The position numbers and the translations under genes are program-made. This document shows positions 11,453 through 57,930 of a stretch of 64,000 nucleotides of DNA, in pieces; positions within the stretch are counted from its first letter, which is position 1, and every line of letters begins with the position of its first letter. Source of the DNA: Ginglymostoma cirratum. Taxonomy: Eukaryota. Where the stretch lies: NCBI GenBank assembly GCA_024137785.1, contig JAHRHZ010000059.1, positions 2,396,952 through 2,460,951 of the forward strand. Direction: 5' to 3'. The notes below the pieces were generated by a model, which was not told where the DNA came from, did no database searches, and worked only from the letters and a program-made list of their open reading frames with translations.

Positions 11453-11731
11453 AGATTTGAAGATTAACCAAAATGAGGTAATGAGAGTCACATTTCAAAC
11501 TGATTGTAAATCCATGTCAATTGAGCAGATCTTACCTTGTCTCTGAAGCCCTTCAATGCTATCAAAGAATCAATGTAGGCATTTAACTAGGAGTTGTGGA
11601 AGATACAATTCCACAGGTACAGAACAGCTTCAGGTCTCCGCTTAAAGCAGTAATAGCTGGAAGTCAGAACTTTCCTTTATGCAATGGCCCCATTGTCAAA
11701 GAGATTCTTAACAAGCTAGGTGTTGACGCAG

Positions 11732-11893
11732 AGATAGTAGGAACTGGCGATGCAGGAGAATTTGAGATAACAAGGTGTAAAGCTGGATGAACACAGCAGG
11801 CCAAGCAGCATCAGGAGAGCAGGACATCGGCTTTCCTGCTCCTCTGATGCTGCGTGGCCTGCTGTGTTCATCCAGCTCTACACCTTGTTATCT
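11732..11893. mobile_element. Fold-back PLE-terminus mini-element, family A
   Basis: Inverted arms of the family A terminus; TSD taggtgttgacgcag 11717-11731 / taggtattgatgcag 11894-11908. Confidence 0.85.
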
Positions 11894-11949
11894 TAGGTAT
11901 TGATGCAGCTCAGCAGGTCTTCAGTCAGCTCTAGCAGCCTTCAAAGTTT

Positions 11950-12984
11950 ACGTAATGATGAAGGCTAAGACCAACAAGTGCAGAGAGTCTGGACAGCAAG
12001 GGATATACAGGATTGGATTGGAAAGATAAAGACGTTTATGGTCGATACCAAAGGCTAAAACAGTGGACATTCTAGAGGAGTACAGAAAGTGCAGGGGTTT
12101 GCTTAAACAATGAATTAGGAGAGTGAAGAGGGAACATGAAAAATACTGGCAGGTCATATTCTCGATAATCCAAAAGCATTTTCTTTGAATATAAATAGCG
12201 TGCAAAGATATGGAGAAAAAGCAGAAGATTGGCACTGGGTAATGATGCTCTTTGAAGTGCCAGTGCAGGCATGATAAGTCAAATGGCCTCCTTCTGCACC
12301 TTAACAATTCTGTGATGAGTGACCAAAGTGGCAATCTGTATGTTGAGCCAAAAAACGTAGCTGGGGTTTTAAATGTGTGCTTAGCATTTATATCCACTGT
12401 AGAGAGGGTGTTGTAAGTATGGAAATCAGAGAGTGACACTTTGATATGTTTGAATAGATTAGCTTTGAGAGAGAGGAGGTTTTAGTGGACTTGAAAGTGG
12501 ACAAACCTCTAGGCCCAGCTGCTGTAGGAAGCAAGGATTACAGGTGCTCTGACAGCAATTTTCAATTCCTTTCTCTCAACAGCAGGGGTGCCAGAGGAGT
12601 ACAGGACAGATAATGTGCTACCATTATTCAAGAAGGTGGAAGGAATAAACCAGGAAACTACATGCCACTGCATCTAATATCAGTGGAAGGGAAAATATTG
12701 TTAAAAAAAATTTGAGTGGCAGAATGAATCTCCACTTGGAGGGGCAAAGACTGATCAAGAGTAGCCAGCATGGTTTTGTAATGTGGAGATCATGTCTTAT
12801 AAATTTGATTCAATTTTTGGAGGACTAGGTACGTAGTTGTGGATAGTATAGTTGATGCAGTCTATATTGGCTTCTGCAAGGCTTTTGACCAGATCCTATG
12901 TCATACAATGGTTACAATGGTTAAAATGCTAAGAGCCCATGGAATCAGGCTTTTTGGCAGATAGGCTTAGTGGTAAGAAGAAGA
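11950..12984 (+). mobile_element. CR1 LINE, upstream-RT part (left piece of an inversion-split element)
   Basis: Degenerate CR1 motifs PLFKK, PGNY.P..L.SV.GK, QHGF and KAFD. Confidence 0.8.
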
Positions 12985-13109
12985 AGTGCAACAATGCCCA
13001 CTCATTTCAATTGAATATTTATTCATTCATTGCCTACATGTCCTGCAGAGTTTGAAACATTGGAATGAATTGATAAAAACTATTTGTTAGGCACTTATTT
13101 TCCTCTAGT

Positions 13110-13305
13110 GGTGTTGGTTATCTCATTTGGTTGGATGATTAATATGTGGTGCAGAAAAAGTACCTAGGAATACAGGTTGGATCTTTGTATCAACTATATT
13201 TCACAGAGGCCTACCCACTTACCTTACCATATGCTTCCTCAAGCTAAACATAACCTGTTGCCTCTCCTTAATAGGAAGAAATGCTGTGATCCTTGTGGAC
13301 TATGA
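13110..13305 (+). mobile_element. Old tRNA-derived SINE, related to 44030-44227 and 49838-50030
   Basis: Degenerate head ggttatctcatttggttggatg and end ...ggactatg. Confidence 0.4.
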
Positions 13306-13524
13306 TTCCATTCCATACCATTTTCTCCCTAATCTGTAATTCATTTTCCTTCATTCTTATACATCATGAACATTAATTGAAACACTTGGCACGACTCTTC
13401 CATTCGCTAGGTGATATATTGTTAACTGTAACACACTGTTCTTATGGGAATTGACATTTTAATTTTTTTATTTGCATATCACATTTATTCATTTGATGAC
13501 TGACATGATATGTATCATCAAGTC

Positions 13525-14927
13525 ATAACTTTTTCTACAGGACAGAAAGAGGCCCTTTATTCCATTATATCCCTGTTGATCATCAAGCAATCCTATTTCC
13601 CAACTCTTGACCCATAGTCTTGTACGCTATGGTCAAACGTTCATCTAAATTGTTTTAAAATGTCTTGAGAGTTCCTGCCTCTACCACTCTTTTAGGCAGT
13701 GAGTTCCAAATACCTACAATTCTCTGGGTGAAAAGGTTTCACCTCAAATTCCCTCTAAACTTCCTGTTTTTTACCTTAAAACTGTGCCCCCTCTTTATTG
13801 ATCCATCTACTAAGGGGAACAAAATTCTTCCTATCTACTCTGTCTATTCCCCTCAGAACTTTGTACATTTCAATCAGTTCCCCATTCAGCCTTCTCTGCT
13901 TCAAGAAAAACAACCCCAGCCTATCTAGTCTCCTTTCATAGCTAAATCATTCCATCCCAGGCAACATCTTGGTGAATCTCGTCTGCATACTCTCTAATGC
14001 AATCATATCTTTCTGTCGTGTGGTGGCCAGAACTGCGCACACTATTCTAGCTGTGGCCTATCTAAGGATACATACAGCCCATCACAACCTTCTTGTTATT
14101 GTATTCAGTGACTTGACTAATAAAAGTTTTTCATATGCCTTCTTAATCACCTTATCTACCTGACCTGCTTCAAGAATCTGTAAATATGCATCACAAGGTT
14201 CCTCTGACCGTCTGAGCTTCCCAGGGTCCTACCATACATTATGTATTCCCATGTCTTCTTAGTCATCCAAAAATCCATCACCATACACTTTTCAGTTTGC
14301 TGTTGTTCAGCCCATCTGACTAGCCCTTCTATATCATCTTCTAGTCTAAGGCTTCTCCATTTACCATACCATCAATTTTCATGCCATCTGAGAACTTATT
14401 GATTATGCATATCTGAACCCTTAACATACACAACAAACAGCAAGGGCCCCAGCATCAAATCCTGTGATACAGCACTGGAAATAGGCTTCAGGTCACAAAA
14501 GCAACCTTTGACGATTCCCCTCTTCTCCTTACCACTAAGCCAATTTTAGGGTCCTATCTGCCAAAAAGCCTGATTCCATGGGCTCCTAGCATTTTAACCA
14601 TTGTATGACATAGGATCTGATCAAAAGCCTTGCAGAAGCCAATATAGACTGCATCAACTATACTATCCACAACTACGTACCTAGTCCTCCAAAAATTGAA
14701 TCAAATTTATAAGACATGATCTCCACATTACAAAACCATACTGGCTACTCTTGATCAGTCTTTGCCTCTCCAAGTGGAGATTCATTCTGCCACTCAAATC
14801 TTTTTTAACAATATTTTCCCTTCCACTGATATTAGATGCAGTGGCATGTAGTTTCCTGGTTTATTCCTTCTACCTTCTTGAATAATGATAGCACATTATC
14901 TGTCCTGTACTCCTCTGGCACCCCTGC
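13525..14927 (-). mobile_element. CR1 LINE RT to 3' tail (inverted right piece of the same element)
   Basis: Minus strand continues the element from the duplicated segment through LE.CAQFWP to the tail at ~13530. Confidence 0.8.
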
Positions 14928-15117
14928 AGTGGGCATTGCTGCATTTTGTGGCCTAAATTGGAATTTTATAGAAGTAGAATCTTCACTTCCATCAATTATA
15001 ATTATTTTTCATGTTGGTTTTATAAACCTGACTTTGAAAATGGATTCAATTATTGACCACTTGTAACAAAACATGTAGTCACTTTACCTTTCTATGCTTT
15101 CTCCATTGTAGGTTGGA

Positions 15118-15384
15118 ATGAGGTCCCGGAGCAGTGGAGAATCTCCGTCTCATGGACGCGCATCCAGGGATAACAACCATGAAGGTGAGGAAAGCACTTC
15201 TATGGGCAGTAAAAAGAAGAAGAAAACCCATCGTCAAAATGATGGAGAAAAGGTAATGGGTGTATCAGGTCCTGTAAAGAAACAACAGAAACCATTTGAA
15301 GAAAATGAGCGACAAAAGAAGTTACTGGAGCTCTCCAAAGATGACCTCCTGCGTCTGCTCAGCATAATGGAAGGAGAAATTGAG
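15118..15384 (+). CDS. FILIP1: Filamin A-interacting protein 1, first coding exon (partial CDS, 89 codons)
   Basis: MRSRSSGES...KKKKK...LELSKDDLLRLLSIMEGEIE matches the vertebrate FILIP1 N-terminus (MRSR..GES, poly-K, ELSKEDL..LLSIMEGELQ); polypyrimidine tract and AG at 15110-15111, exon starts 15112; phase-0 donor GAG|GTGAGT at 15385. Paralog FILIP1L is less likely. Confidence 0.88.
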
Positions 15385-16337
15385 GTGAGTTTCATGTAGC
15401 AATGTATTAACATAAACAAGTTTACTTTGTAGGCCACAAACTGCTGTCCAATTGAGAGCCAGAAGACTGGAGCAGATAGTGACATCCCGTTGAGTTGCTA
15501 ATCTTAACATTGCTCATACTTTAAATTCGGAGAGAACATTGCCAGCTGAACATGACCACACACTTTCTAACAGAAACCCACAAGTTCCCTTGGATAGGAT
15601 GAGTGTTATGGGTTGGATGTCTAGAAGAGCAGAGGAAGGAAACGATTTAGGAAGAAAGTAAAGGACAGACTTGGCTTTAGAAACAAATTACAATCAACTC
15701 AAAGTCCCATTAAAATTATGAGACATGTAATACTGTACTTAAAGTAAGCCTTGGCCAGAAGAACAGATGACACTCAGCAGTCCCTGACAGATTCATAGTT
15801 ACGAAAGTGGTTTTATTGCAATACAATATGAAAGAGATTGATTGCAAAAGCACTCAGAAAGTGTTGGCAGATTCTTAATGAAAGTATTAAAGACAACAAA
15901 TTTCCATCATCTGCAGGATCTAAGATCCAAGGAAACCAATCAACAGTCCAAGAATTTTTTGTCAGTACTAAGCCTTATACGATGATAAAGAAGAAATATG
16001 CACTTATGCAGCAACTTACACATCCTCAGGCCATGCAATATGCTTGACAGTTATTTTTGAGGTGTGGTCTTTGTTTTCAGTTGACAAGCGTGACAGTTTG
16101 TACACAGTCAGGTTCCATTACCATGACAGTGATGAATTACTACTGCACTTATTTGGATGTGATTGGTTAAGTGATATTCATAGTCTGGAAAAGGCTCTGC
16201 TCATCTTCAAATGCCATGATGAGGTCTTTTATATTTGTCTGAATTGGCTGGTGGCAACTTGGTTTCACAGCTCAAAAAACAGTGCAGCACACCCAGCAGT
16301 ATACGAATAATAATCAAAAATCATGTGCTCGTGTACT

Positions 16338-16468
16338 GAGATAGTTGGAACTGCTGATGCTGGAGAATCTGAGATAACAAGGTGTAGAGCTGGATGAACA
16401 CAGCAGGCCAAGCAGCATCAGAGGAGCAGGAAAGCTGACGTTTCGGGTCTAGACCATTCTTTAGAAAA
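16338..16468 (-). mobile_element. Single-arm PLE-terminus mini-element, family A
   Basis: Reverse complement of the family A terminus with tail; hammerhead box mutated; no clear TSD. Confidence 0.8.
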
Positions 16469-17749
16469 TGCAGTTTTCGTTCACAAACCCTGAAGTAGTT
16501 TGTGAATCCGTATTGCTTCCAGACTGGAACTTTATTACTCAATTTTTCATTGAATTCCATTGAATCTATATTGTGACGTGTCCATCAGTTTTATACATGA
16601 CAATATTAGCCTTGCATTGACTGGTATAAAGCCTTGTTAACAGTACAGTGACTCTGTATATTTCAGTAGTAACTAGCACATACACATTACTCTGTTCTAC
16701 TCTCATAATGATCTTTTGAATGGAAATACTTCATGAAAATGAGTTCAAACTTTTGAATACTTTTGGATTGTTTTCTCAGCAGAAAGAACAGAACAGGGTT
16801 GCACATGAAGCCCAGTGGCAAGCGGTAGTCCATTAGGTATGAGCAGTTACGCATTACAAAAAATAGTGCAGACAGGATGCAGGGGACATTTAGTTGTGTG
16901 GGGTGGAGGCACTACCATTTTCTCATCTCTGCTTAAATCCATTGTGGCTGTCAAGTGGGCAATTAATGCCCAGCCTAGCATCTGATTTCCAAGCCAGCAG
17001 CTGGGGAAACTATCAGGCAATGAGTTCAAAAGCAAATCCCTTCAGGTTTATTAGATCAATTTTGGGTCAGGATATGACTATTTGAGGGATGCAGAATCTG
17101 GAAAAGGGAGGGGCATTGAGCATTATCCCTCTCCTTTTCTCCCTTTCAAATGAGCACCCCCTCTTCAGCCAGCAACCTTCATCCTATTCTCACTCAGTTA
17201 TGGCCTGGCTCCTTTGTCAAACCAGTCCTTTGGTTAGTGTAAACAGCTGCCATTCTTGGTGGTGTAGAAAGCAATGGAAAACTACCACTGGGGTAGAATT
17301 TCTTCCGCTCGAGTTCTAAACCTCAGCAAAGCCCCAATGCTGACCAGTTAAGCACCAGCTGGACTTTTAATTCCAACGGGTTTTCCCAACAGAGGCACCA
17401 TGGGGGAGGCTCCTATAGTTCTCTGGTTGGTGGGCAAGACTCCTCATTGTAATCATTAACCAATCCATGATAAATTTGACTGTGGTTACTTGTACCCACT
17501 TCGCACTACGGTATTCAGCTCCTTCCCTGCATCCTTTTTTAAATTTGCTCATAGGATTTTGGACATCATTGGCTGAGCCAGTGTATCCCCAATTGCCCAG
17601 ATAGAGCAACTGAGATTCAACCACATTGCTATGGCACCAAAATCTCATGGCACTGATCATACACACCCCACATCCACCAACATTGGCACCTGACATGTGC
17701 TAACCTCTAAGAACCCTCATGGCACATCTCCAATCTACTTAAAGGCAAT

Positions 17750-20560
17750 AAAAACTGAAAGAACTGCAGATGCTGTAAATCAGTATCAAAAACAGAAATT
17801 GCTGGAAAATCTCAGCAGGTCTGGCAGTATCTGTGGAGAAAAATCAGATTTAATGTTTTGGCTTCAGTGACCTTTGTTCAGAACTGATGGTTGCTAGGAA
17901 AAAATTGTCTTTGTCTTTTTCTATGGAAGATAGTGTGGGGGTTGGTGATAAGGAGTAAACTATAGGCGAAGATAGAGCACAAAGAGAGAGAACAGTTGGA
18001 TAGGCATAGGAGTCGATAATGATCAGCCGAGAGAATGAATAGCTACTAATGGGAACTATTAGTGGTTAACAATGATATCAGAGATAACCTCAACACAAGC
18101 CCTCCTCCTGGACACCACCCCAAGGCCTCCTACCTTCCCTCGATCTCTTCATCTCCAACTGCTGTCGAGACATCAATTGCCTCAACCTCTCTACCCCTCT
18201 CAAACACTCCAACCTCTCCACCGCAGAACGTGCAGCCCTCCGCTCCAATCCCAACCTCACCAGAAAACCCGCGGACAAGGGAGGGGCAGTCGTAGTATGG
18301 CGCACTGACTTCTAAATCGCTGAGGCCAGGCGCCAACTCTCTGACACCTCCTCCTACCGCCCCCTGGATCATGACCCCACCCCCGAGCACCAAACCATCA
18401 TCTCCCAAACCATCCACAACCTTATCACCTCAGGTGACCTCCCACCCACCGCCTCCAACCTCATCGTTCCCCAACCCCGCACTGCCCGCTTCTATCTCCT
18501 TCCCAAAATCCACAAACCTGAATGCCCTGGTGGACTCATTGTCTCCGCCTGCTCCTGCCCCACCGAACTCATCTCCACCTACCTAGACTCCATTTTCACC
18601 TCCTTGGTCCAGGAACTCCCTACCTACGTCCGTGACACCACCCACGCCCTCCACCTCCTCCAGAACTTCCAATTCCCCGGTCTCCAACACCTCATTTTTA
18701 CTACGGACGTCCAGTCCCTATACACCTGTATTCCCCATGCAGATGGCCTAAAGGCCCTCCGCTTCTTCCTGTCCCGCAGAACTGACCAATCCCCCACCAC
18801 CGACACCCTCATCCGTTTAGCCAAACTCATCCTCACCCTCAACAACTTCTCTTTCAATTCCTCCCACTTCCTACAGACAAAGGGGGTGGCCATGGGTACC
18901 CGCATGGGCCCAAGCTATGCCTGCCTCTTTGTAGGTTAAGTGGAACAATCCCTCTTCCATACCTACACTGGCCCTAAACCACACCTCTTCCTCTGTTACA
19001 TTGATGACTGTCTCGGCGCCGTCTCGTGCTCCCACGTGGAGCTCGAACAGTTCATCCACTTCACCAACACCTTCCACCCCAACATGAAGTTCACCTGGAC
19101 CATCTCCAACACTTCTCTCTTCTTCCTGGACCTCTCTGTCTCCATCTCGGGCAACCGCCTAGAAACCGATGTCCATTTCAAGCCCACTGACTCCCACAGC
19201 TACCTGGAATACACCTCCTCCCACCCACCTTTCTGCAAAAATGCCATCCCCAATTCCCAATTCCTTCGCCTCTGCCGCATCTTCTCCCAGGATGAGACAT
19301 TCTACTCCCGTACATCTCAGATGTCCTCATTCTTCAAGGACCGCAACATCCCCCCCACAGTGGTCGAGAACGCCTTCGACCGTGTCTCCCGCATTTCCCG
19401 TAACTCATCCCTCACACCCCGTCCCCGCAATAATAACCAAAAAAGAATCCCCCTCATCCTCACGTACCACCCCACCAACCTCCGGATCCAACGCATCATT
19501 CTCCAACACTTCTGCCATCTGCAATCTGACCCCACCACCAAAGGCATTTTTCCCTCCCCACCCTTATCTGCTTTCCAGAGGGACCACTCCCTCCGCGACT
19601 CCCTTGTCCGCTCCACACTCCCCTCCAGCCCCACCACACCCTCCACTTTTCCCTGCAACCGCAGGAAGTGCTATACCTGCCCCCATACCTCCTCCCTCAC
19701 CCCAATCCCAGGCCCCAAGAAGACTTTCCACATCAGGCAGATGTTCACCTGCACATCTGCCAATGTGGTATACTGCATCCGCTGTACCCGTTGTGGCTTC
19801 CTCTACATCGGGGAAACCAAGCGGAGGCTTGGGGACCGCTTTGCAGAACACCTGCGCTCAGTTCGCAACAAACAACTGCACCTCCCAGTCGCGAACCATT
19901 TCAACTCCCCCTCCCATTCCTCAGATGACATGTCCATCCTTGGCCTCCTGCAATGCCACTGTGATGCCACCCGAAGGCTGCAGGAACAGCAAATCATATT
20001 CAGCCTGGGAACCCTGCAGCCCAATGGTATCAATGTGGATTTCACAAGCTTCAAAATCACCCCTCCCCTAACCGCATCCCAAAACCAGCCCAGCTCGTCC
20101 CCGCCTCCCTAACCTGTCCTTCCTCTCACCTATCCCCTCCTCCCACCTCAAGCCCCACCCCCATCTCCTATCTACTATCCTCATCCCGCCCCCTTACCTG
20201 TCCATCCTCCCTGGACTGACCTATCTCCTCCCCACCCCCCCACTTACACTCACCTTTTCTGGCTCCATCCCCGCCTCTTTGACTTGTCTGCCTCCTCTCC
20301 ACCTATCCTCTCCTCTATCCATCCTCTATCCGCCTCCCCCTCTCTCCCTATTTATTTCAGAACCCTCTTCCCCTCCCCCATTTCTGATGAAGGGTCTAGG
20401 CCCAAAACGTCAAGCTTTCCTGCTCCTATGATGCTGCTTGGCCTGCTGTGTTCATCCAGCCCCACACCTTGTTATAGTGGTTAACAATGAGTTGTGTGTA
20501 ATAGCAGACCATGTAATAACAAGACCTGGTGTTTGGGGGCACAGTAAGTGAAGGGCAGAC
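17750..20560 (-). mobile_element. Older PLE family B terminus and 3' UTR (17750-18075 plus 20475-20560), split by the family A insertion
   Basis: gaaagaactgcagatgctgtaaatcag...gctggaaaatctcagcaggtctggcag matches family B arms; purine-rich UTR; target duplicated on both sides of the insert. Confidence 0.65.
18076..20474 (+). mobile_element. Neptune-type Penelope-like retrotransposon, 5'-truncated, RT plus GIY-YIG, two premature stops
   Basis: One frame: KPADKGGAVVVW, FYLLPKIHK, TDVQSLYT, KGVAMGTRMGPSYA, YIDD, Cys linker CNRRKCYTC, GIY-YIG VYCIRC..LYIGET; TAA at 18313-18315 and 18937-18939; ORF ends 20112; perfect 16-bp TSD 18060-18075 / 20475-20490. Confidence 0.93.
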
Positions 20561-20661
20561 TCCAAAGTCAGACCAGGGACATGGAAATAGTTAGTTGGCC
20601 AACTTGGGGCATTCAGAGTCAGGATATTCTCTAGGAGCCAAATTTCAGACAGCCTATTGCC

Positions 20662-20795
20662 TGAGAGATAATAGGTAGTGCAGATGCTGTAGAATCCGAG
20701 ATAACAAGGTGTGGAGCTGGATGAACACAGCAAGCCAAGCAGCATCATGGGAGCAGGAAAGCTTGACGTTTCGGGCCTCGACCCTTCATCAGAAA
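20662..20795 (-). mobile_element. Single-arm family A mini-element with intact hammerhead-like core (20765-20792)
   Basis: Minus strand CTGATGA-A-GGGTCGAGGCCC-GAAA-CGTC followed by family A terminus and tail. Confidence 0.8.
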
Positions 20796-22312
20796 TCTTG
20801 CTGTATTCACTCTTTCTGCCCTGTGGTGGGGGGTGGGGGTGGGGGGAATGCTGATTTTCCTCTTGAGCCGAGAGAGGTAAATTATTAGGTGAAATAGAAG
20901 TTAGTGGTGCCACAGTTATTTTTGTTGCAGGTGGGGAGGTGTCCAAGGCAAGTAAGTAGGTAGTCCAGTGATGTCATGGGTTCGGGTGGGTGACTATGAG
21001 TGAGAGAATATCTTGCAGGTAACAGTGAGAGTGGTAGGAGCTGTGTACAATAGCAGAGATAACTTGAGTATGAGGGATCAGAGGGATGATGGTGGCACTC
21101 TGCTTGGGCAGAGTGGAAAAGGTTATTGATTTTTTTTTCTTACATTACTTTTGCATTCTTCCAGATGGCTGGGACTGCACCTACCCGAGTGGCAACCTTA
21201 GGGCAGATTGGCATGGTCTGGCATTATGACCTCCATTGCTAGTCCTGGAGGATGACAATGTCCTGTGTCTATACTGCCCTGCGCAGCAGGACTGCTGGGT
21301 CCCTGGCTACACAGTGGGTTGCCATTTTCCCCTACCTACCATGTCTAGGGCGAATATCAGGAACTATAATGGGCATCTCTGGATTGACAGTTCTTTTCCA
21401 GGTGCAAAATATGCCATTAAAGGTGGCATAGGTGCAAAGAATCCTGGTGAATTGTGGAATATGCAATTAGGGGTCGGTTGTTTTGGGAGCAGTACATGGT
21501 GAGATGCAGCTAGAATTGGATGTGGGGACAACACGGGGTATGGTATAGGTAGTTAATGAGGCAAGATTTGTTAGATATGACAGGAAATTCACAAGGCCTC
21601 GTGGTGGAAAATAAACTCCAACAAAATTGACGCAACTCAGATTTAGCCAAAAAAAAGTCAGATTCAGTCCATTGATTGTCATATTCTGCCTGTTTGGTGC
21701 ACCTGAAGATATAATTTCTGTCAACAAGCCACAGTATACAGGCAGAACATTCGGGGATATGTGAACTAAATGAGCTGCGACCCATAGGATGCTCTCCACA
21801 TTACCGTAGATCAAACAGTTGGCCAAATGAATAGCTTAGACCATTAAATCACTTATCCTAAATTATAAGATTGAATCAAAATAAGATTTTCATGTTGCCA
21901 TGTTACACCTCAGAGCTACATATTTGGATGCAGGGCTATCATCAAGCAGAGGTAATGTTCAGAAGCCGATTGAGACCAATATTTCCAGGCCGCCATCAAT
22001 CCAAATTTTGAGATGCACGATGTAGTTCCTAAAATAAAAACCAGGAAGGATAAAGGTAGTATGTGATCAGCAGGCAGATGTGAAACTATCTCAACTACAC
22101 ATGGGGCACAAGGTTATCAGCAGAGGTTTTCAAAGTATGCAATGAGTCTTTATGAAGTCAGGGCACCAAATGGCGCAAAAATGAGGAGGAACAGAAACCA
22201 TTTCAGGGATCTGATTTATTTATTTATTATCACATGTATCTTATCACAAAATACAGTGAAAAGTGTTGTATAGTATCACCACTCTCTAGTTCAATCTTAA
22301 AACACAGGAACT

Positions 22313-22634
22313 GGGGCGGAACAGTGGCTCAATGGTTAGCACTGCTGCCTCACAGCGTCAGGGACCTGTGTTCAATTCCAGCCTCGGGCGACTGTCTGTG
22401 TGGAGTTTGCACATTCTCCCCGTGTCTGCGTGGGTTTCCTCTGGGTGCTCCTGTTTCCTCCCACAGTCCAAAGATGTGCAGGCTAGGTGGATTGGCCATG
22501 CTAAATTGCACGTAGTGTCCAGGGAGGTGTAAATTAGGTGGGTTATGGGGAATGGGTCTGGATGAGACACTCTGAGGGTTGGTGCAGACTGGTTTGGCCA
22601 AAGGACCTGTTTCCACACTGTAGGGGTGCTATGA
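22313..22634 (+). mobile_element. HE1-type V-SINE, full length
   Basis: A box (tggctcaatggttagc), B box (gttcaattcc), V domain, CR1-type tail. Confidence 0.9.

Positions 22635-24198: not shown

Positions 24199-24202
<4 letters not shown>

Positions 24203-24265
<63 letters not shown>
24203..24265 (+). repeat. (TG)31 microsatellite
   Basis: Perfect TG dinucleotide run. Confidence 0.98.
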
Positions 24266-24266
<1 letters not shown>

Positions 24267-40116: not shown

Positions 40117-40299
40117 TAGAGCTGGATGAACAAAGCAGGCCAAGCAGCATCAGGGGAGCAGGAAAGGTGATGTTTCAGGCCTAGACCCTTCCCGAAACAT
40201 CAGCTTTCCTGCTCCTCTGATGCTGCTTGGCCTGCTGTGTTCATCCAGCTCTATACCTTGTTATCTCAGATTCTCCAGCATCTGCAGTTCCTACTATCT
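40117..40299. mobile_element. Fold-back mini-element, family A
   Basis: Inverted arms joined inside the hammerhead region; perfect 14-bp TSD caggatcaattttg 40103-40116 / 40300-40313. Confidence 0.9.
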
Positions 40300-43612: not shown

Positions 43613-43791
43613 CAACAAAATCAGAACATGCTGGAGAAACTCAGCAGATCTGGCAGCGTCTATGAGGAGGGAAACAGAGTTAACGATTTGAGCCCTGTGG
43701 CTCTTCTTCAGAATATTGGTCTCAAAACATTAGTTCTGTTTTCTCTCTGTTTTTGTTTCAAATTTCTAGCATCCACAGTTCTTTGTTTCAT
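43613..43791. mobile_element. Older fold-back mini-element, family B-like
   Basis: Minus core CTGAAGA-A-GAGCC-ACAG-GGCTC at 43690-43711; probable TSD tttcctgttaac 43601-43612 / tttgctgttaac 43792-43803. Confidence 0.7.
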
Positions 43792-45906: not shown

Positions 45907-46017
45907 AGAGATAGTAGGAACTGCAGATGCTGGAGAATATGAGATAACAAGGTGTAGAGCTGGATGAACACAGCAGGCCAAGCAGCATCAGAGGAGCTGG
46001 AAAGCTGACGTTTCGGG
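45907..46017 (-). mobile_element. Family A PLE terminus running into an assembly gap
   Basis: Same arm as 16338-16468; N gap 46018-46417 starts at stem II. Confidence 0.85.
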
Positions 46018-48100: not shown

Positions 48101-48458
48101 CTTGTCCACATCATTTAGCATTGTGGCTTGAATTCTCTGCCGGTCGCTTTCCGTTTTTCTGATTCTGTCTTTTGTTATTGTCCTTGTTTCTCTCTCTTCT
48201 GTGTCCTTGTATAGAGGTGAAAAGTACATCGGTGTAATACAAGATAATGTTAGATCCTCTATTTTTTGCTCAAGGACACAGGAAACCCACAATAGCTGAA
48301 AGAGAAATATGATAGCTGACAGACCCCCAAATGTCAGCCCTCTCACCACTTCTGTGGAAGAATCTCTCCAAATCTTCAGAGATGATGTCAGTGATATAAC
48401 ATAGGAAGTGGACTAGGAGTTCAATTGCGACTGTGGGCTTAAAAGAAATTCTAGCCTT

Positions 48459-48743
48459 AAAAACCAAAAGAACTGCGAATGTTGTAAATCAGGAACAAAA
48501 ACAAAAATTGCAGGAAAAGCTCAGCTTCCTCAGTTCTGAGGAAGGGTCACCGGACCAGAAGTGTTAACTTTGATTTTTTTCTTCACAGATGCCACCAGAC
48601 CTGCTGAGCTTTTCCTGCAAATTCTGTCTTTTCTCCTGATTTACAGGATCCACAGTTGTTTTTGGTTTTTAGGGTTTTCAAAGGCCGCAGTTGCAATTGA
48701 GCTCCTAGTCAGTTCTGAGGAAGGTCATCGGATTCGAAAGGTT
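48459..48743. mobile_element. Complex family B mini-element with two hammerhead-like cores and captured flank
   Basis: Cores at 48536-48565 and 48715-48743; probable TSD 48446-48458 / 48744-48756 (11/13). Confidence 0.72.
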
Positions 48744-49179
48744 AAATTCTAATCTTGGCCAATTGTGCTGAAACAAGAGGAGGGAGGTCTTGTAGATGGA
48801 TCAGAATGTATCAGAGCCAGATTTTCAGGGGTTTGATTTTAAAAGAAAGATGTTTATAGAGCAACAAATGTTTCAGCAAGGACTAGACACTGTAGAAGCC
48901 AACAGGCTGTAGAAATGGCATTTCTAAATCATACATGGAAGGTTTTGTACACTGCAACTTTAAACCATCTTCACCTGGAGTTGAATTGCCATAACAGAAT
49001 CTCCAAGATTATTTTGTGTTATTCCATAGACATTTAGAGGTCTGGAGTTTGATGTTTGAAAGAACTTGATATCTGGTTATAGACAACATAAACAAGAGCT
49101 AAGTGAACTTATTTTTGCCCTTCAGATTAGTGGCTCACTTGATAAATCTATCGCAGTAGTTCCCATTCTAGATGTCATT

Positions 49180-49757
49180 GGTCAAAGCATTGAGTAAACA
49201 AGTTAGTACATCATTTTGCAGCTGTACAGGACATGGATAAGGCATACTCCATACAGTTCTGGTCATCCTGTTATAGAAAAGGCATTATTAAAGTGCGAAG
49301 TGTGGAAAAATTACTTACAAGAATGTTACCAAGACTGAAGGGTTTGAGTTATAAGGAGAGGGTGGGTAGGCTAAGACTTTTTCCTCTGGAGCATAAGAGG
49401 CTGAGGGTGACCTTATAAAGATTGAAAAAATCATGACGCGCATTGTTAAAGTGAACAGAAAAGGTCTTTTTCCCTATGGTAGGGGAGTTCAAAACAAGAG
49501 TGCATAATTTAAGGTGAGGGGGGAAAGACTTAAAAGGGACCTAAGAGGCAACTTTTGCACACAGAGGGTGGTGTGTGTATGGAACGTACTGCCGGAGGAA
49601 GTGGTGGATGCAGGTACAATTACAACATTTAAAAGACATTTGGACAGGTACATAAATAGGAAAGGTTTAGATGGATATGGGTCAGATGTAGGCAACTGGG
49701 ACTAGTTTAATTTGGGAAAACAAATTGGTCTATCTCTGTGCTGTATGATTCTATGAC
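49180..49757 (+). mobile_element. CR1 LINE 3' end
   Basis: QFWSSCYRK, DLRGNFCTQRVVCVWNVLP; tail tgtatgattctatgactc. Confidence 0.88.
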
Positions 49758-49837
49758 TCCTTGTCATTGAAACTGTAAAATTAACCAGTGTGGACTGCAG
49801 TACTGAAACCAAACTGCAAGGTATTCCAGCTTGGGTA

Positions 49838-50030
49838 TGGTTAGCACAGTTGGCTGAATGACGGGTTTGTGATACTAACAGAAACAACGTGCGTTCAATT
49901 CCCTCACTAGATCAAATCATCATAAAGACTTTGCCTGCTTAGCCTCACGCCTTGTCTAAGGCATGGTAATGCTCAGATTTAACTCATTATCAGTCTCACT
50001 CTAATAAGAGGGCAACATCTGGGACTACAC
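49838..50030 (+). mobile_element. tRNA-derived SINE
   Basis: tggttagcacagttggctg...gttcaattccc; homologous to 44030-44227. Confidence 0.6.
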
Positions 50031-50189
50031 CACGTTTAGAAGCACCATTTTTAGAAATCTAGATGATGATATTATTGTGGGAGACAGGGATTGAATTTGT
50101 ATTCTTGACCAGGTGTGGTAGTCAAGAGATGATCTCCTCTATACACATAACCTCTACTTCCCATATCCTACCTTATACCAAGTTCCCTT

Positions 50190-50515
50190 CACTGCAGTAA
50201 CTCACCAAGGCTCCTTTAATAGCACTTTTCAAATTCGCGACATCTACTATTTAGATGGATGTGGGTAGCAAATGCATATGAACACCAACGCCTGCAACAC
50301 CTTGAAGCCATACACAACCCTAACCTGGAAATGTACAGATGTTCTTTCACTGTCACTGGGTCAAATTCCTGAAACATCCTTACTAACAGCATCTAGGTGT
50401 AGCTACATCATTTGGACGTCAGGAAGGCAAATCTTCATCGCCTTTTGAGAGGCAATTAGGGATGGGCACCAAATGCTGACCTAGCCAGTGATGCCCACAC
50501 CCCATGAAAGAATAA
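50190..50515 (+). mobile_element. Second-family LINE 3' end
   Basis: ggcaattagggatgggcaccaaatgctgacctagccagtgatgcccacac tail. Confidence 0.7.
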
Positions 50516-51297
50516 CTATTCTTTAACTGTTCTTAAAATGTTTATGGTGACCCACCTTATTTAACTACTTCAGTGCAGGTAGCTCTTTCATGTTATTAGG
50601 TAGGAGTTTCCAAAATTTTAAAACAGCAATGATAAAGGAATGGCAATATATTTACAAGTCAGAATGGTACATGTCTTCTAGGTGGTGATCACAGGCTGGA
50701 TATTACTGTTGAAGAGCCTTGACAAGTCCTCAAAATGCGTCTTATAGATGGTATATATTGCAATTACTGTGCACGGGTGTTGGAGAGAGTGAAATGTTTA
50801 AGATATTCAAGCTGGCAGTGTAACATCCTCTTCCTCCATTACTCCTTGATTTCATGATTTAATGTGTGAATATAACGTAAATGTCCAACTACAAAAGTTC
50901 CAAGCTGAAGCACGTGGACCTTGGAAGGAAATGACTTCCCTGTAGCAAATAACAAACTGGCTGGTGGCAAAATAGTGTTCAACAGAAAATAAAGATAAAA
51001 ATTGCAATTGAAATGATTTAGAAATAAACATCTAATTATGCATATTATTTCCTCCTGTTCTAGAGTGTTGTGCAACCTTGAGCATTGCATTTTTTTGTGG
51101 CTGTGAATTTGATTCAGTTAAATGATGTATGAGCAAAACCATTTGTACAATTCTCCGTCATCAGGCTAATAAAAATAACAGAACTAAGATTTATAATTGT
51201 CATTTCCACCTTATTTACATTGAACTGCTAAAAAACACACAGGTCAATCCCCAAATAATCAGCAATAACTGTAGGAAAAGGGATGGATGTGAACATT

Positions 51298-51420
51298 GAG
51301 TCACAGAGTTGTACGGCACGGAAACAGACCCTTCAGTCCAACTCGTCCATGCTGACCAGATATCCTAAATTAATCCAGTCTCATTTGCCAGCATTGGGCC
51401 CATATCCCTCTAAGGCCTTC
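51298..51420 (-). mobile_element. CR1 3' tail
   Basis: Homologous to 3460-3580. Confidence 0.75.
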
Positions 51421-51474
51421 CCATGGTGGTGATCGATTCTCCACTGCTGCTCTCTGCACAATGTCTAGTGTATG

Positions 51475-51790
51475 CTAAGTGCTGTATTGAAGGAAAATGA
51501 TATTGTCAAAGGTGGCATCTTTACAAAGGAAAGTTAAAGCAAGATCTGTTTGACATCTCTGCTGGACGTAAAAGATCTATGTTGGCATTTCACAGGCGTA
51601 TGGGAGGGTTTCTCACCAATAGTTATTCCTCAATCAAAATAAAGAGATCTGGACGTCATCACATTGCTCCACTAAAATTGATTCCTGCCTTTCCTATATT
51701 ACAGCAGTGACTACGGTTGCGGAAGTACAAAAATTGGCTGTAGGGCATTTTGCAACTTTAAAGGCTATATGAATACATATTTTTTCTTAT
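51475..51790 (+). mobile_element. Old Deu-domain SINE
   Basis: tggacgtaaaagatct and ggtggcatcttt Deu-like motifs. Confidence 0.5.
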
Positions 51791-53069
51791 ACACTGTCTG
51801 GGGATTCATTAATGTTTTTGTACACTGGGCAGATCTTCACATTCCGATTGACTTCGAAAGATGGCAATGTTAAATTTACTTATTGGGTGGATCAGAGCAT
51901 TTTTCCTGGGAAATTAGCAATTAATCTCTTTGTTTATCCTGAAGCAAGAATGCTTGATCATTTGGGAAAATATGACAAGATCAGCAGAAACGAGAATCTT
52001 GATGTTAAGGAGAAAATGTCAGATTCTCCAATCAGGCTTTGAATGGTGAGATTAGAATCTCACTAGTGAGTGATGTGAGACATATTTGCAAGCAATTGCA
52101 TGCGATTGGTACTTAGTCTCACTTCATTTATTTGCATTATACTTTTCTCCCACCTGCCAGATATAACCTAGATGATGACAATTCCTATTGTAAAAGTAGG
52201 TAATCGACAACTCCAGCTCACTACTTTTCCCCCTTGAGCCTCCATCTTGGACAGGAGTCCCCAACACCTCAGGACATGCTGCATGGGTAGCGGCTGCTCA
52301 TACCCTACTATCCACAGATTTTGGCATCAGACACATACTGACCTCTTTGCATGATCATGACACATCTCCAAAGTAGCAATCACCTTCCACGGTTCCATGA
52401 CTTGTGCAATGTACAGGAGCTGCTTATTTCAGATCTTTGTCTATAAAATATCCACATCATTATCCTACATGCAATGCTCCCTTTCTTGGGTACTGTGGGG
52501 GTTTGGGAAGTTGACAGGAAGATTCTCATTACTGATGCCACATGGGCAATGTTTGACTGAGTAGGCGTCAGAAGGCTGGAGCAGCAGACAACTGAATGAG
52601 GACATTGATGTGCAAGGTACATGTCAGATATATCCCACTGGCCTCCTTGCAGGGGCCTCCTTGCCCCAATGCTTGGAGAATGCTTTTTAAATGTTATTTG
52701 TATGTGCTGCAACTACTGAATCATTATACTAGGAGGAGATGCTTCGCTTCTGGTATTGACCAAATAGACTCATTGGAGCCATTCTCAATGGATCCAGGCA
52801 TAGAAGCTGTGGGCATCTCTGTGGCTGTAGCTTCATGATCTACTACATGAATGGATGAAAAGTACACGTTCCTGGAAGCCCAGGGCCAACATTAACCTCC
52901 AGCAAATATGGATCCATCTCCTATGGGGAGCTTACAGCCTCAGATGCTGCCATGATGCGGTGAAGATGCAGAAAAGCTGTCATTATTTGTCTTCCATGGA
53001 ATACCGTGTGGATGAGACAGGGGAAGTGGTATAATACTCGGCCAGGGGTGTCAGTCAGAACAATATGTG

Positions 53070-53372
53070 ATCTTCCTTCAGGCAGAAGTTACAGAAGCTT
53101 GAACACTCACACACACACACACATACACCAAAACAGGTTCAACAACAGCTTCTTCCCTGCTGTTATTAGACTACTGAATGGACCTCTCTACTTTCAAATC
53201 TACCGTTGACCTTGCTTTTATGCACTTCCTGTGCAGTTGTAACCTTGTATGCATCATTCTGTCTAAGCAAACTGTGATCAGTATGTCCTTGTTTGCTATG
53301 ATCTGCCTGTACTGCTGGCAACACAAAACATTTCACTGTACTTATGTACATATGATAACAATAAATTCAATT
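53070..53372 (+). mobile_element. Rex1/Babar-like LINE 3' end
   Basis: LPSGRSYRSL...RFNNSFFPAVIRLLN C-terminus; tail tttcactgtac...acaataaattcaatt. Confidence 0.7.
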
Positions 53373-54525
53373 CTTTCCAGCATTTCTGCAATGCAACACC
53401 TTCTTCCACTGAGGCCAATGAGGGACATAGGATGATCCCTTGACATCAGGTTTCTATACAGATTATGTCTGTGGCTTCACACCAATACTGTACAGAAGGC
53501 CATTTGATCTGTGGAACCACTGTTGCAAACAAACAAAAAGCACATTGAGGCTATGAGGTGGATAATGTGGATTGAAGAGAGCCAAAGAATAGAGTAAGAA
53601 GATAACGGTGTTCTTCAGATAGAATAATAGAATAGATACAGTACAGCAATCATGGCAAAAACAATGCAGGCGGGACTTCTTTGTGAATATCTTTCAACTG
53701 AGTTGTGTGAAGTCAGCTTTCACAGACTGCAAGGTGGAGGTGGAGGGCCTGTACACTTTTGGAGTGTCCTGAGAGGAGACTTTGGAAGGGGAGGTCCTGG
53801 ATGCACTTCCTCCTCCACATGGGTGCCTGGTGCCATGACTGTATCTCCTTGTGAGGAAGGGGCACCTGGAGTGATGTCAAGATCCCTCAGCCCTCTGCCA
53901 CCTTACCATTTTTACTGAGTACTAAAGGCTAGAGCTAGAAGACTCTGTGCTCATACCCAACAGACACTGAGTATATTGGACCTAGAGCTCCATGGCAACC
54001 ACTTACCTATCCTGGAGGTAGCCAGACTGCAGCATGGACATTCTTGTGAATCTTGGATAACCTCAAATTAGAGACCTGCATTCCTCTTTTATGAAATCTG
54101 CTTATTATGCAGCTTTCAGATGGTGGGAAAAACACAGAACAAATAGATTGGGAGCACTAATGTTTATGCAAGGGGAGGAGAATAAAAGGAGTTCCGGAAC
54201 AATTTTCTGACAATCTGAACGGCAGGAGCAAAAGGAACATGCGAAAAGAGAGAAATGGTGTAAAACCAGCTTTACAAGGAATTAACTTATGCAAAGAAAG
54301 AAGTTAAGAGCTAAAATGTTTACTACAATTTGTCAGGTGCTGGATGCATTTATTCAAATGATATTAGCCCAACAAGGTTAAGCACTTAAGAAAGACGTTA
54401 ATGTTGAACTTTTAACTATATTTCCTTATTTTTCTATTATTTTGCACCTAAGATTTTGTACCTAGGTATTCTTGTACCTAAGATGTTGCTGGGAATGACG
54501 ACATTGCACACTTTTTGCTGTACTC

Positions 54526-54835
54526 CGGCACGGTGGCTCAGTGGTTAGCACTGCAGCCTCACAGCGCCAGGGACCTGGGTTTGATTCCAGCCTCAGGTGG
54601 CTGTCTGTGTAGAGTTTGCACATTCTCCCCGTGTCTGCGTGGGGTTTCCTCCGGGTGCTCAGGTTTCCTCCCACTGTCCAAAGATGTGCAGGCTAGGTGG
54701 ATTGGCCATGCTAAATTGCCCATAGTGTTCAGGGGTGTGTGGGTTATAGGGGGATGGGTCAGGTGGGATGGTGCAAGGGTCAGTGTGGACTTGTTGGGCC
54801 GAAGGGCCTGTTTCCACACTGTAGGGATTCTAATG
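54526..54835 (+). mobile_element. HE1-type V-SINE, full length, young
   Basis: cggcacggtggctcagtggttagc head, V domain, tail gggccgaagggcctgtttccacactgtagggattct. Confidence 0.92.
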
Positions 54836-55759
54836 AAAAAAATTCCTGTATCCCTGTACTTAAGTACAGGTGACAATAAAATCTAATTCTAATTCTAACT
54901 GTTTGAACCAGATGAGTCACACCAGTGACTAGATGAGTTTCACTGTTTGTCCTACTCAGTAAAAGCACATTGGTCTGCTTATTTGATGTGAAATGTATTT
55001 CTTTTAGTATTATTCTTTTAGTTCTTTTAAGTGTTAAAATATACTCTATATCTAAAGGTGAAGGTAATTGGCAGTGAAATTAATTAATCTCCAACATATT
55101 TGTTGGCCTTTATAATTTTTACTTCACTAAAAGTTAAATCTGCAAGGCATCAGCCTTTATTAGCTTCTTTAAAAATGCTGCATGTGGTAGTTCTAATTGA
55201 ATTACTTTGCCATGAAGTCATATTTCACTGCCCTCTGGAGAAACCAAAATCACAAAAATACTTTCTCAGGTTGAAAATGAAGATATGCACAGGACTGTTC
55301 TGTGCTAAGATTTGTCAATATATTACTTCAGAGAAGTGAGGAAATATTGCAAACATTTTACAAACTGGAATTACACCACTTACATTAACTTTTAGATTAT
55401 GCCTGCCAAAGAAACAACACTGTCACCGAGCAAAGCACTCCTATAATCATTTGTCTTATGAACCCTAATGTTGAAAGGTTAATACCACAGCAAGTTGTAT
55501 TTATACAATTTTAATTTAAGTATATCTACATGCTCTTCACAGAAAGAATAAAGTCAACATGGAACATAGGAGGAAGTGAATGAGAAAGAGATCTTAACAT
55601 TAGACTGGTAATGTTAATGTTAGAATAGTTTACAAAATGTAACATTAGTTCCATATTACTAAATAACACACAATGCAAAATTTGAATTGAAAATTCCTCT
55701 TTCTGTGGTCTTACTTTCATTTTCCATTTCTCTTAATTTAAATTCTCCCTTTGTGCTTA

Positions 55760-57930
55760 TTTTTATTCACTCATGGGATGTGGCTGTTATTGGCTGGGCC
55801 AACATTTATTGGTCATCCGTAGCTGCCCTTGAGAAGATGATAGTGAACTGCCTTCTGAACTACTGCAGTCCACGAGCTGTAGGTGGATGCACAATGCCAT
55901 ACAGGAGTGAATTCTAGGATTTTAATACAGTTACATTGAAGAAACAGCAGTAAATATCCAAATCAGGTTAGTGAGTAGCTTGAAGGGGAACTTGCAGGTG
56001 GTGAAGTTCTCGTTCATCTCCTGCCCTTATCCTTCTAGATGAAAATGGTCGTGGGTTTGGAAGGTGCTGTCTCAGGAACCATGGGAATTCCCGCAATGAA
56101 GTTTGTAGATGGTACACACTGCTCCTACTATACATCAATAGCAGAATGGGTGAAAGTTTGTGGGAGTGGTGCCAAACAAGTGGGTTACTTTTCCCTAAAT
56201 AGTGTCAGGTTTCTTTTGCATTTTTAGAGCTGCACTTATCCAGGCAGGTGGAGAGTATTCCTTCATATTCCTGACTTGTGCCGTCTAGATGGTAGATAGG
56301 CTTTGGAGAACGAGGAGGTAAGCTACTCATTTCAGAATTCCTAGCCTCTGACCTGCATTTTTAGCCACTATCTTGTGTGGTGAGTCCAGTTCAGATTCTG
56401 GTCAATGATAATGGATGTTGAGAGTGAGGGAATTCAGTTATGGGAATGACATGGAATCTCAAGGGGCAATCCCTAATCCCTTAGAGTAATCCCCACTTGC
56501 TCAGAGGATACTTAAGAATCAACGACATTGCTTTGTGTATGGAGAGATAGTGGGAACTGCTGATGCTGAAGAATCTGAGATAACAAGGTGTAGAGTTGGA
56601 TGAACACAGCAGGCCAAGCAGCATCAGGGGAGCAGGAAAGCTGACGTTTCGGGTCAAGACCCTTCTTCAGANNNNNNNNNNNNNNNNNNNNNNNNNNNNN
56701 NNNNNNNNNNNNNNNNNNNNNNNNNNNNNNNNNNNNNNNNNNNNNNNNNNNNNNNNNNNNNNNNNNNNNNNNNNNNNNNNNNNNNNNNNNNNNNNNNNNN
56801 NNNNNNNNNNNNNNNNNNNNNNNNNNNNNNNNNNNNNNNNNNNNNNNNNNNNNNNNNNNNNNNNNNNNNNNNNNNNNNNNNNNNNNNNNNNNNNNNNNNN
56901 NNNNNNNNNNNNNNNNNNNNNNNNNNNNNNNNNNNNNNNNNNNNNNNNNNNNNNNNNNNNNNNNNNNNNNNNNNNNNNNNNNNNNNNNNNNNNNNNNNNN
57001 NNNNNNNNNNNNNNNNNNNNNNNNNNNNNNNNNNNNNNNNNNNNNNNNNNNNNNNNNNNNNNNNNNNNNNNTGGATGAACACAGCAGGCCAAGCAGCATC
57101 AGGGGAGCAGGAAAGCTGACGTTTCGGGTCAAGACCCTTCTTCAGATAAGGGTCACTTTTCTGAAGAAGGGTCCAGACCCGAAACGTCAGCTTTCCTGCT
57201 CCTCTGATGCTGCTTGGCCTGCTGTGTCCATCCAGCTCTACACCTTGTTATCTCTGTGTATGGAGTTGTGTGTAGGTTAGACTAGGTAAGGATGGTAATT
57301 TCCTTCCCCTGGGACATTAGTTTCATTGTCAAAAATCGACAATAGTTTCATGGTTGCCATTAGGCTAGCTTTAAATTCCTGATTGTTATCAAGTTCAGAT
57401 TTCACCAACTGGCATCGTCGGTTTCATGCCTTCAGAACAATATCTTGGGTCTCTAGATTGCTAGTTCAGCAAGTTCACCTCTGCCACTATTTATCTTGAA
57501 GGAGTTGGTAATTGCCTGATACTTGGGTGGCATGGATGTTACTTGCCGCTTGTCAGCTCAAGACTGGATATTATCCAAATCTTGTTGCATTTGAACATGG
57601 ACTGCTTCAGTGTTTGAGAAGTCATAAATGGTTCTGAATATTGTGTAATCATCGATGAAAACCGCTACCTCTAATCTTATGATGGAGGGAAGATCAACGA
57701 TGAAGCAGCTGAAGATGGTTGGACCGAGGACACTACTCTGAGGATCTCCTGCAAAGACAAATGACCTTCAACAACCACAACCATCTTCCCATGTGCAAAG
57801 TATGACTCCAACCAGCAGAGAAATTTTCCCCCAGTTATCATTGGCTCCAATTTTGTGAAAGGTCCTTGATGTCATATTTGATCAAATTCAGCCTAGACAT
57901 CCATAGCAGTCATTCTTACCGCCCTCCCCG
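55760..57930 (-). mobile_element. Second-family LINE (55760-56465 and 57500-57930) interrupted by SINE and PLE mini-element
   Basis: Tail at 55760-55830; body similar to 2150-2730 and 4935-5570. Confidence 0.7.
56545..57254. mobile_element. Fold-back family A mini-element spanning a gap, intact cores on both strands
   Basis: Cores 56643-56670(-), 57118-57145(-), 57161-57188(+); TSD tgtgtatggag 56534-56544 / 57255-57265. Confidence 0.85.

Follow-up and report, generated by a model that had tools for sequence, protein, structure and literature searches.

What are the short fold-back insertions that recur in 64,000 nucleotides of the genome of the shark Ginglymostoma cirratum (GenBank assembly GCA_024137785.1, contig JAHRHZ010000059.1, positions 2,396,952 to 2,460,951 of the forward strand; this whole stretch is hereafter called the window), and by which route do they arise? 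Each consists of two inverted copies, or arms, of one terminus of a Penelope-like element (PLE), and seven of them were listed in an initial annotation, which regarded them as a non-autonomous, ribozyme-bearing retro-system placed in a host intron. The data presented here leave very little doubt that the units are insertion products of endonuclease-bearing (EN+) Penelope-like retrotransposons, and they make it fairly probable that a two-armed unit results from a one-off priming of two DNA strands near the capped 5′ end of a single mRNA.

Positions within the elements are numbered from x = 0, the final T of the pseudo-long terminal repeat (pLTR), corresponding to window position 20474 in the element encoding a reverse transcriptase (RT) and to 35624 in the arm used as bait; negative numbers lie upstream within the element, positive numbers in the tail. 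The A of the motif CCATTTC is at -94 in subfamily A2 and at -95 in A1, and the hammerhead cut is predicted after C -63 (A2). The two-armed units of the window and their target-site duplications (TSDs) are the following:

11732..11893: family A2 two-armed unit, tail on the left arm (-57..+37), right arm -67..+3; TSD 11717-11731/11894-11908, 15 bp, 2 mismatches.
35449..35661: family A2 two-armed unit, left arm -80..0, tailed right arm -93..+37; TSD 35436-35448/35662-35674, 13 bp, 1 mismatch.
40117..40299: family A2 two-armed unit, left arm -85..-9, tailed right arm -73..+36; TSD 40103-40119/40300-40316, 17 bp, 1 mismatch (or 14 bp, should its final three bases be part of the element).
56545..57254: family A2 two-armed unit, tail on the left, with an N gap (56672-57071) that duplicates the left arm; TSD 56531-56544/57252-57265, 14 bp, 1 mismatch.
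31475..31697: family B two-armed unit, tail on the right; TSD 31464-31474/31698-31708, 11 bp, 2 mismatches, weak (score 5).
35876..36009: family B inverted pair with little arm overlap (arms -86..+2 and -13..+36); TSD 35863-35875/36010-36022, 13 bp, exact.
43613..43791: older family B inverted pair, internal deletion in the right arm; TSD 43601-43612/43792-43803, 12 bp, 1 mismatch.
48458..48671: eighth pair, family B, overlooked initially, tail on both arms; no TSD found.

The seven units of the initial annotation are all present where they had been placed, each between its own direct repeats of 11-17 bp; six of the seven reach a TSD score of at least 9, a value attained by none of 400 mismatched flank pairs in the census described below. 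The unit spanning the N gap exists, but its span does not: the same left arm stands on both sides of the gap (100% identity over 75 nt), so that its true length is ~235 bp. The hairpins of 60-110 bp attributed to these insertions are not formed by 35876-36009 and 43613-43791, inverted pairs that share little sequence and fold with -28.8 and -47.5 kcal/mol, respectively, compared with -110 to -164 kcal/mol for the four other units folded.

The assignment to PLEs rests on the coding partners of the two families, the first of which lies in the window:

18076..20474, plus strand: 5′-truncated PLE of subfamily A1, with RT in 18316-18939, a stop, and 18940-20112, followed by linker, GIY-YIG and 3′ pLTR.
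20381..20411, plus strand: minimal hammerhead motif in the pLTR (CUGAUGA, one bulged A, stem II, GAAAC-GUC), with one core change.

In the product of this element Pfam recognizes the GIY-YIG domain (E 1e-4, 22.8 bits) and returned no RT match, and the RT motifs are present, with one stop. At its start the element has an inverted stub of 13 nt that corresponds to the tail end; it carries no tail at its 3′ end and is flanked by an exact 16-bp TSD. The family-A arms correspond to its last 60-95 nt, as had been proposed, with 87-93% likeness; however, they derive from the sister subfamily A2, of which long copies exist (L017, L021). For family B, two of 30 loci extend into RT/GIY-YIG sequence, L133 and L146 matching the protein at 49-57%. 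Between GIY and YIG both families display the two cysteines of the CCHH motif (VVYCIRCTRCGFLYIG in family A, LVYCIGCSQCGLLYIG in family B), and between RT and endonuclease a CX2-5CxxC linker, in its CX4CxxC form, is found as CNRRKCYTC in A and CNRQRCNTC in B. This linker marks the Neptune/Nematis clades (PMC8557442); judged by this motif, the partners of both families are of the predicted Neptune/Nematis type, and the Penelope/Poseidon clade is ruled out by its presence. Core, bulge and stem II of the hammerhead were also found by motif in L021 (A) and L133 (B), and the arms of the families halt just 5′ of it; searches against Rfam gave no hammerhead match, neither for the window at the gathering score nor for 20300-20500 at E 10. 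Mobilization by a PLE RT/GIY-YIG protein and the presence of a hammerhead, both foreseen by the initial annotation, are borne out; each family has an RT/GIY-YIG partner and a minimal hammerhead motif in its pLTR.

The layout of the units is also that of the coding elements. The 34-37 extra nucleotides carried by one family-A arm are the sequence that follows the 5′ pLTR and enters the open reading frame (ORF) in L164, L174 and L190, and therefore represent the PLE "tail"; the family-B tail is likewise one-sided (15 of 17 classifiable pairs), the origin from the ORF start having been traced for the family-A tail alone. Furthermore, among 29 long coding copies retrieved with the 5′ part of the RT element, 13 (12 of the 27 listed rows plus L178) carry at their 5′ end an inverted terminal arm, whose length goes from ~37 nt to more than 1,150 nt. 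The short units are the short end of the standard PLE layout, an inverted truncated copy plus a one-sided tail, shared with coding copies.

A census of 160 ten-kb stretches plus the window, amounting to 1,276,438 non-N bases, placed these insertions in a wider frame; the sample is not random, 40 stretches flanking the window and later ones having been chosen beside readable ones. Before the counts, a spurious pair bridging 5 kb of Ns (L086) and gap-adjacent arms were removed, as were, for the variant tests, the L120 pairs, which are duplicated. Family A is represented by 205 arms, 47 pairs (one of them false) and 111 single units, family B by 145 arms, 23 pairs and 99 single units. The resulting 69 pairs in 1.28 Mb correspond to 54 per Mb, or 45 per Mb away from the window, which is 2-3 times richer in pairs than average, yet not special. 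The TSDs measure 11-17 bp (mode 14-15, 65% AT) and score at least 10 in 33 of the 47 A pairs and in 6 of the 23 older B pairs; gap-free A pairs are 101-1939 bp long. Hairpins of this kind break short-read assemblies, and because of this both counts and junction data under-sample the most perfect hairpins; in fact, 10 of the 47 A pairs span a 400-base N gap (e.g., L031, L038, L085, L101, L105).

With their inverted ends, small size and high number, the ~45-54 pairs per Mb of the stretches examined would be filed by an annotator as miniature inverted-repeat transposable elements (MITEs), that is, as DNA moved by a transposase. Their TSDs, however, vary between 11 and 17 bp, their ends are asymmetric, their length is variable and their arms are the same in kind as the 3′ end of RT-coding elements, so that a DNA MITE, already disfavored by the initial annotation, can hardly be entertained.

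Several features shared by the two arms bear on how they come together. Exactly one tailed arm is found in 36 of 37 classifiable A pairs (46 pairs, nine being set aside as gap-limited or ambiguous), in contrast with the single A units, which are split 52 to 51 for the presence of the tail; the RT element of the window obeys the one-tail rule as well. An exception to this rule is the family-B unit 48458-48671, with two tails and no TSD. The arms of one insertion share 57 variants at 2100 sites, compared with 0.85% upon permutation, a level reached in 0 of 2000 permutations; sharing between partners is ~3 times that of permuted arms of the same subfamily, and partner arms differ at 19 of 190 polymorphic-site comparisons versus 84 expected for independent templates. 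Subfamily is concordant in 36 of 37 gap-free pairs, and long arms are paired with long ones (P 0.001): both arms are long in 3 pairs and short in 25, a single pair being mixed. Of 29 pairs, 14 have the untailed arm extending further 5′ and 9 the tailed one, whereas in 6 both extend equally far.

This last result argues, barring later deletion, against a hairpin copied from the tailed strand, and hence bears on self-priming, a mechanism proposed for Adineta PLEs in PMC3846280. In the version considered here, a cDNA or an antisense RNA would fold back and be copied to a hairpin, one tail being trimmed by the endonuclease and the tip being deleted unevenly. Such a mechanism likewise predicts shared variants, matched lengths and one tail, the latter having been suggested to be a product of endonuclease resolution (PMC8557442), and is consistent with the overlaps of 1-12 nt seen at 18 of 34 gap-free junctions. 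Nevertheless, the untailed arm exceeds the tailed one by up to ~90 nt, also in long pairs (-672/-761, -924/-997), 51 of the 111 single units end at the same +3 point in spite of having no partner, 13 of the 34 junctions contain fillers, and in vitro both strands are extended from internal sites (PMC11167929). We therefore regard self-priming as unlikely, albeit deserving some weight.

The junctions between the arms allow a further alternative to be weighed, namely that the PLE protein copies, as a whole, a dedicated non-autonomous hairpin RNA acting as a retrozyme-like or short interspersed nuclear element (SINE)-like master. The abundance of the pairs would speak for it, as would the fold-back joints found in poly(A) RNA (see below); junction pairs collide slightly more often than expected in family A (4 vs 1.6, P 0.07; 1 vs 0.85 in B), and the exact junction of 40117-40299 occurs 28 times genome-wide. 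Among the 20 copies of this junction in which the tail side was scored (19 of the 27 others plus the window copy, by eye where the script was ambiguous), however, the tail is on the -73 arm in 13, on the -85 arm in 5, on both in 1 and on neither in 1. Since a single copied hairpin would retain its tail side, this junction arises repeatedly. A non-autonomous element with a master copy should have one junction, one end orientation and one length, whereas junctions vary, their pairs not recurring beyond what the marginal distributions predict, the tail swaps sides and lengths range from 101 to 1939 bp; moreover, the hammerheads lie on opposite strands, unlike those of retrozymes, and the outer ends of the two arms coincide with the two points at which single units start. 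A master hairpin thus appears very improbable, and the separate retro-system or retrozyme originally postulated is not sustained, the same layout being found at every length up to kilobases.

Other configurations were encountered among the pairs: L223:5480-5759, L223:7484-7735 and L233:4019-4301 hold 50-90 nt of non-element DNA between the arms, pieces of families A and B adjoin in L067:3165-3952 and L263:9024-9405 (a nested insertion or an inter-family jump), and L286 contains an inverted segment inside its tail.

The 5′ ends of the arms are far from random. Of 168 informative family-A arms, 61 begin at -97..-92, compared with a single one within the six positions upstream of this interval, 23 within the six that follow it and 3 at the hammerhead cut; in family B, 58 of 137 fall at -103..-97 and 1 upstream. 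This "wall" lies just before the hammerhead core, where the A site reads CCATTTC and the B site TCAGTTC, both of which we take to fit the initiator consensus YYANWYY, and the flanks upstream of it are not element sequence. The arms usually end at or near the 5′ edge of the hammerhead, which corrects the initial description of a joint in or near the hammerhead; the cut site, with its 3 of 168 A arms, is rejected as their 5′ end. "Extreme truncation with inversion", one of the options considered earlier, comes close, but these are not random truncations: arms that halt at a fixed point and carry the ORF-side tail fit the copying of an mRNA 5′ end. A splice acceptor does not explain the wall, there being no AG at that place in A and the B ends being scattered over -103..-97, nor does the halting of BLAST in the C-rich tract, since 0 of 61 upstream flanks are C-rich and body identity is at most 9/20.

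Directly in front of the wall, a G stands before 13 of the 15 clean starts at A, whereas among other 5′ ends it is found in 36 of 81 (P 0.004); it also precedes 24 of 34 starts at ATTT(T), against a 25% background; the extra G at the complete 5′ end of L1 has been interpreted as the mRNA cap (PMC11702581). In Drosophila virilis Penelope an internal promoter resides in the pLTR (PMC2377424), with the start 46 nt upstream of an intron of 75 nt, the end of which coincides with the hammerhead (PMC2377424, PMC4209133). Of 30 copies selected for containing the ORF start, 9 begin at the wall, one of them beside a gap. That the wall represents the start of a capped mRNA, and the short arms its run-off copies, has moderate odds.

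Alternatively, two-end priming could take place on a long or tandem RNA with no start at the wall, the enzyme stalling at the hammerhead edge or at the upstream C-rich tract. Indeed, in both families the wall falls where a long pyrimidine tract begins and where helix I of the hammerhead is located, no RNA start is seen in unstranded poly(A) RNA-seq and the G control is high at other 5′ ends. A stall, on the other hand, should leak upstream, where the six adjacent positions hold a single end versus 23 downstream, and it would account neither for the G before 13 of the 15 exact starts nor for the jumps that depart from the wall; it seems to us a rather improbable cause.

These jumps, which we relate to the proposed run-off at a capped start, are seen in composite copies. 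In 17 of the 30 ORF-start copies the ORF piece ends at +309..+1618 and is directly followed by a new unit beginning at the wall; 11 of the 17 have a G given by neither template and 12 end the ORF piece in A, it being understood that the ORF-start bait forces stops beyond about +290. The composites L192-L220 join a 5′ pLTR, with its tail and the beginning of the ORF, to a G and another short unit; landing sites recur in L193 and L197 (+312) and in L202 and L220 (+404), the latter two differing at lineage sites and hence looking independent. When patterns in which a pLTR piece is followed by a new wall unit were searched genome-wide, 89 were found landing at ~-72..-44, 43 at -48..-20 and 29 at -20..+8, with 0 in the controls. 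Counted by hand, 37 of these 89 landings lie within four positions, at and just after the predicted cut, a hint that the hammerhead-cleaved 5′ fragment acts as jump acceptor; ~13, however, fall within the C run at -71/-72, so that microhomology may account for part of the pattern. Finally, L281 (G000:C87:27749900-27750500, minus strand) contains five 35-nt units extending from the wall to the cut or 1-2 bases beyond, then a whole tailed unit, with a TSD-like repeat on both sides; it looks like repeated template jumping on the 5′ fragment of the ribozyme.

RNA evidence was drawn from run X19 (unstranded poly(A) RNA-seq, ~24% of the reads), run X20 yielding 14 and 3 reads. In X19 the depth per mate direction is 6,000- to 10,000-fold on pLTR plus tail versus ~300 on the ORF start, and the reads show fold-back joints and loose ends into other sequence; those on pLTR and tail are mostly passengers in host transcripts. 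Between 26000 and 45900 of the window no X19 reads fall on unique sequence and no GT..AG splice joint was found, so that the proposed location in an expressed host intron receives no support. The window also contains, at 29300-29812, an RT fragment of a long interspersed nuclear element (LINE; open frame of 170 aa) that draws many RNA reads from other copies.

The scheme that we favor starts from what is observed, namely PLE origin, ORF-side tail, TSDs, one tail per pair, shared variants, wall, variable junctions and long-copy layout. The PLE protein would cut both target strands 11-17 bp apart and copy one RNA onto both ends. The capped 5′ end of this mRNA would be the A of CCATTTC, which stands four bases upstream of the hammerhead core; a protein dimer would prime one strand at ~+37 and the other at ~+3, and both cDNAs would run toward the cap, giving run-off copies of 131 and 97 nt comparable to retroviral strong-stop DNA. 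The new 3′ ends would then be joined head to head by end joining, with trimming, overlaps of 1-12 nt or fillers, whereas extension of only one end would give a single unit. A jump of the enzyme from the cap onto a different RNA end would instead yield partial tandems and short arrays, and long two-armed copies could arise from the second pLTR-ORF junction of tandem transcripts. An anole PLE protein, a predicted dimer, cuts and extends both strands in vitro, using two internal starts at the limits of the tail (PMC11167929); stubs devoid of the downstream ORF sequence needed by this protein would be dead ends. We consider this scheme as a whole fairly probable. Its generalization, by which PLE replication itself passes through a strong-stop step, the dimer starting two cDNAs 34 nt apart that run off at the cap and either join their ends or jump, is more tentative, being in our estimate slightly short of an even chance.

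Several results weigh against this scheme. No pile of molecule starts is seen on the pLTR region in X19, with the proviso that these are unstranded poly(A) data, and an arm that reaches the wall is present in only 14 of 29 pairs and absent from the other 15. G is common at other 5′ ends too (44%), is not above control in a wider four-base window (30/85) nor above background before C+ATTT (12/34), and family B shows no clear G signal at its 5′ ends. The start of D. virilis Penelope is farther from the hammerhead core than the one proposed here, and the anole protein data concern a Poseidon element, whereas the present families are of the putative Neptune/Nematis type. Only 18 of the 111 single A units have an adjacent TSD by strict criteria (33 by a broader search, for which there is no separate null). 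The 10% discordance between partner arms exceeds the 5.7% background, by eye the two arms disagree at -59 in ~5-6 of 17 copies of the recurring junction, and arm likeness could also stem from one lineage being active at a time or from gene conversion.

The remaining PLE sequences of the window are these:

16338..16467, minus strand: single family A2 unit, -93..+36; no TSD found.
20664..20796, minus strand: single family A1 unit, -95..+37, with a G in front; no TSD found.
45907..46017, minus strand: family A2 arm with tail, running into an N gap.
17747..18072, minus strand: family B arm, -278..+38, target of the RT-element insertion.
1..861, plus strand: 3′ part of a second long A1 copy, tailed, interrupted by an N gap.

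The RT element sits within this family-B arm, which occupies 17747-18072 and continues from 20475 onward, and its exact 16-bp TSD is family-B sequence. Apart from the PLEs, segments 12579-12919 and 14590-14930 form a 341-nt inverted repeat, 98% complementary and 1.67 kb apart, for which an inversion, a recent inverted duplication and an error of assembly are all conceivable; its sequence resembles, by eye, a CR1-type LINE.

What these units may offer is a large natural record of the PLE cycle, called still undefined in PMC8557442. One tail per pair, shared variants and the wall with its extra G make the origin of tails, inverted arms and partial tandems directly testable. If the proposed mechanism is true, a single strong-stop rule would explain one-sided tail, inverted arm and partial tandems, and retrozyme-like arrays could be born from repeated jumps on the hammerhead-cut fragment, as in the 35-bp array of L281. 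In the literature searched, subscription papers and supplements lying outside the search, no description was found for PLEs of a one-tail rule, a cap wall or jumps departing from it, nor any paper joining Penelope, shark and Poseidon.

As objects, the units are ordinary, being the described PLE layout at its shortest. The EN+ PLE insertions of Adineta (Pen2a_Av) comprise an inverted 5′-truncated pLTR, an optional tail of 30-40 bp and a TSD (PMC3846280, PMC8557442), and as far as these accounts go they share with the present insertions the head-to-head inverted termini, the tail at one end, the variable TSD, the partial tandems and the hammerhead in the pLTR. The TSDs of Adineta, however, are of 8-10 bp, compared with 11-17 bp here, and, unlike those insertions, most of the shark units lack an ORF (~100-300 bp); their density is of the order of 50 pairs per Mb, and a fixed base marks the limit of their 5′ ends. 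Poseidon of Anolis carolinensis (PAc) has in common with them the start sites bounding the tail, the cutting and extension of two strands, the predicted dimer and the pLTR hammerhead (PMC11167929); yet it belongs to another clade, without the CX2-5CxxC linker, a multi-copy tandem mRNA is assumed for it, and inverted pairs, exclusivity of the tail, cap wall and jumps are not treated in the accessible text of that account.

Minimal core, bulged base and palindromic helix III are shared with the minimal hammerheads of metazoan PLEs (PMC4209133), and Schistosoma possesses opposite-strand hammerhead pairs 100-700 bp apart, single motifs being attributed to truncated PLEs (PMC4209133). The same paper proposes circular templates produced by self-cleavage, whereas the 5′ ends described here do not pile up at the cut site, and the portion of it available contains no analysis of TSDs, tails or junctions such as that of the present census. 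Non-LTR retrozymes (bioRxiv 10.64898/2026.07.22.740005) resemble the units in being ORF-less, PLE-derived and hammerhead-bearing, and the 35-bp array of L281 has their form. Retrozymes, however, are described there as same-strand tandem repeats, while the fold-backs have two opposite-strand arms and no repeat unit; identity with non-LTR retrozymes, which would require head-to-tail hammerhead units on the same strand, is accordingly rejected. Lastly, the twin priming of L1 offers a parallel in that both ends are primed on one RNA, the TSD is complete, the inner joint is made by end joining and an extra G is found (PMC11702581). In the L1 products described, the arms cover different parts of the RNA, whereas here both cover the same stretch, their starts being 34 nt apart; an L1-type twin-priming product, for which non-overlapping arms are required, is thus discarded for most pairs, whose arms represent the same pLTR stretch.

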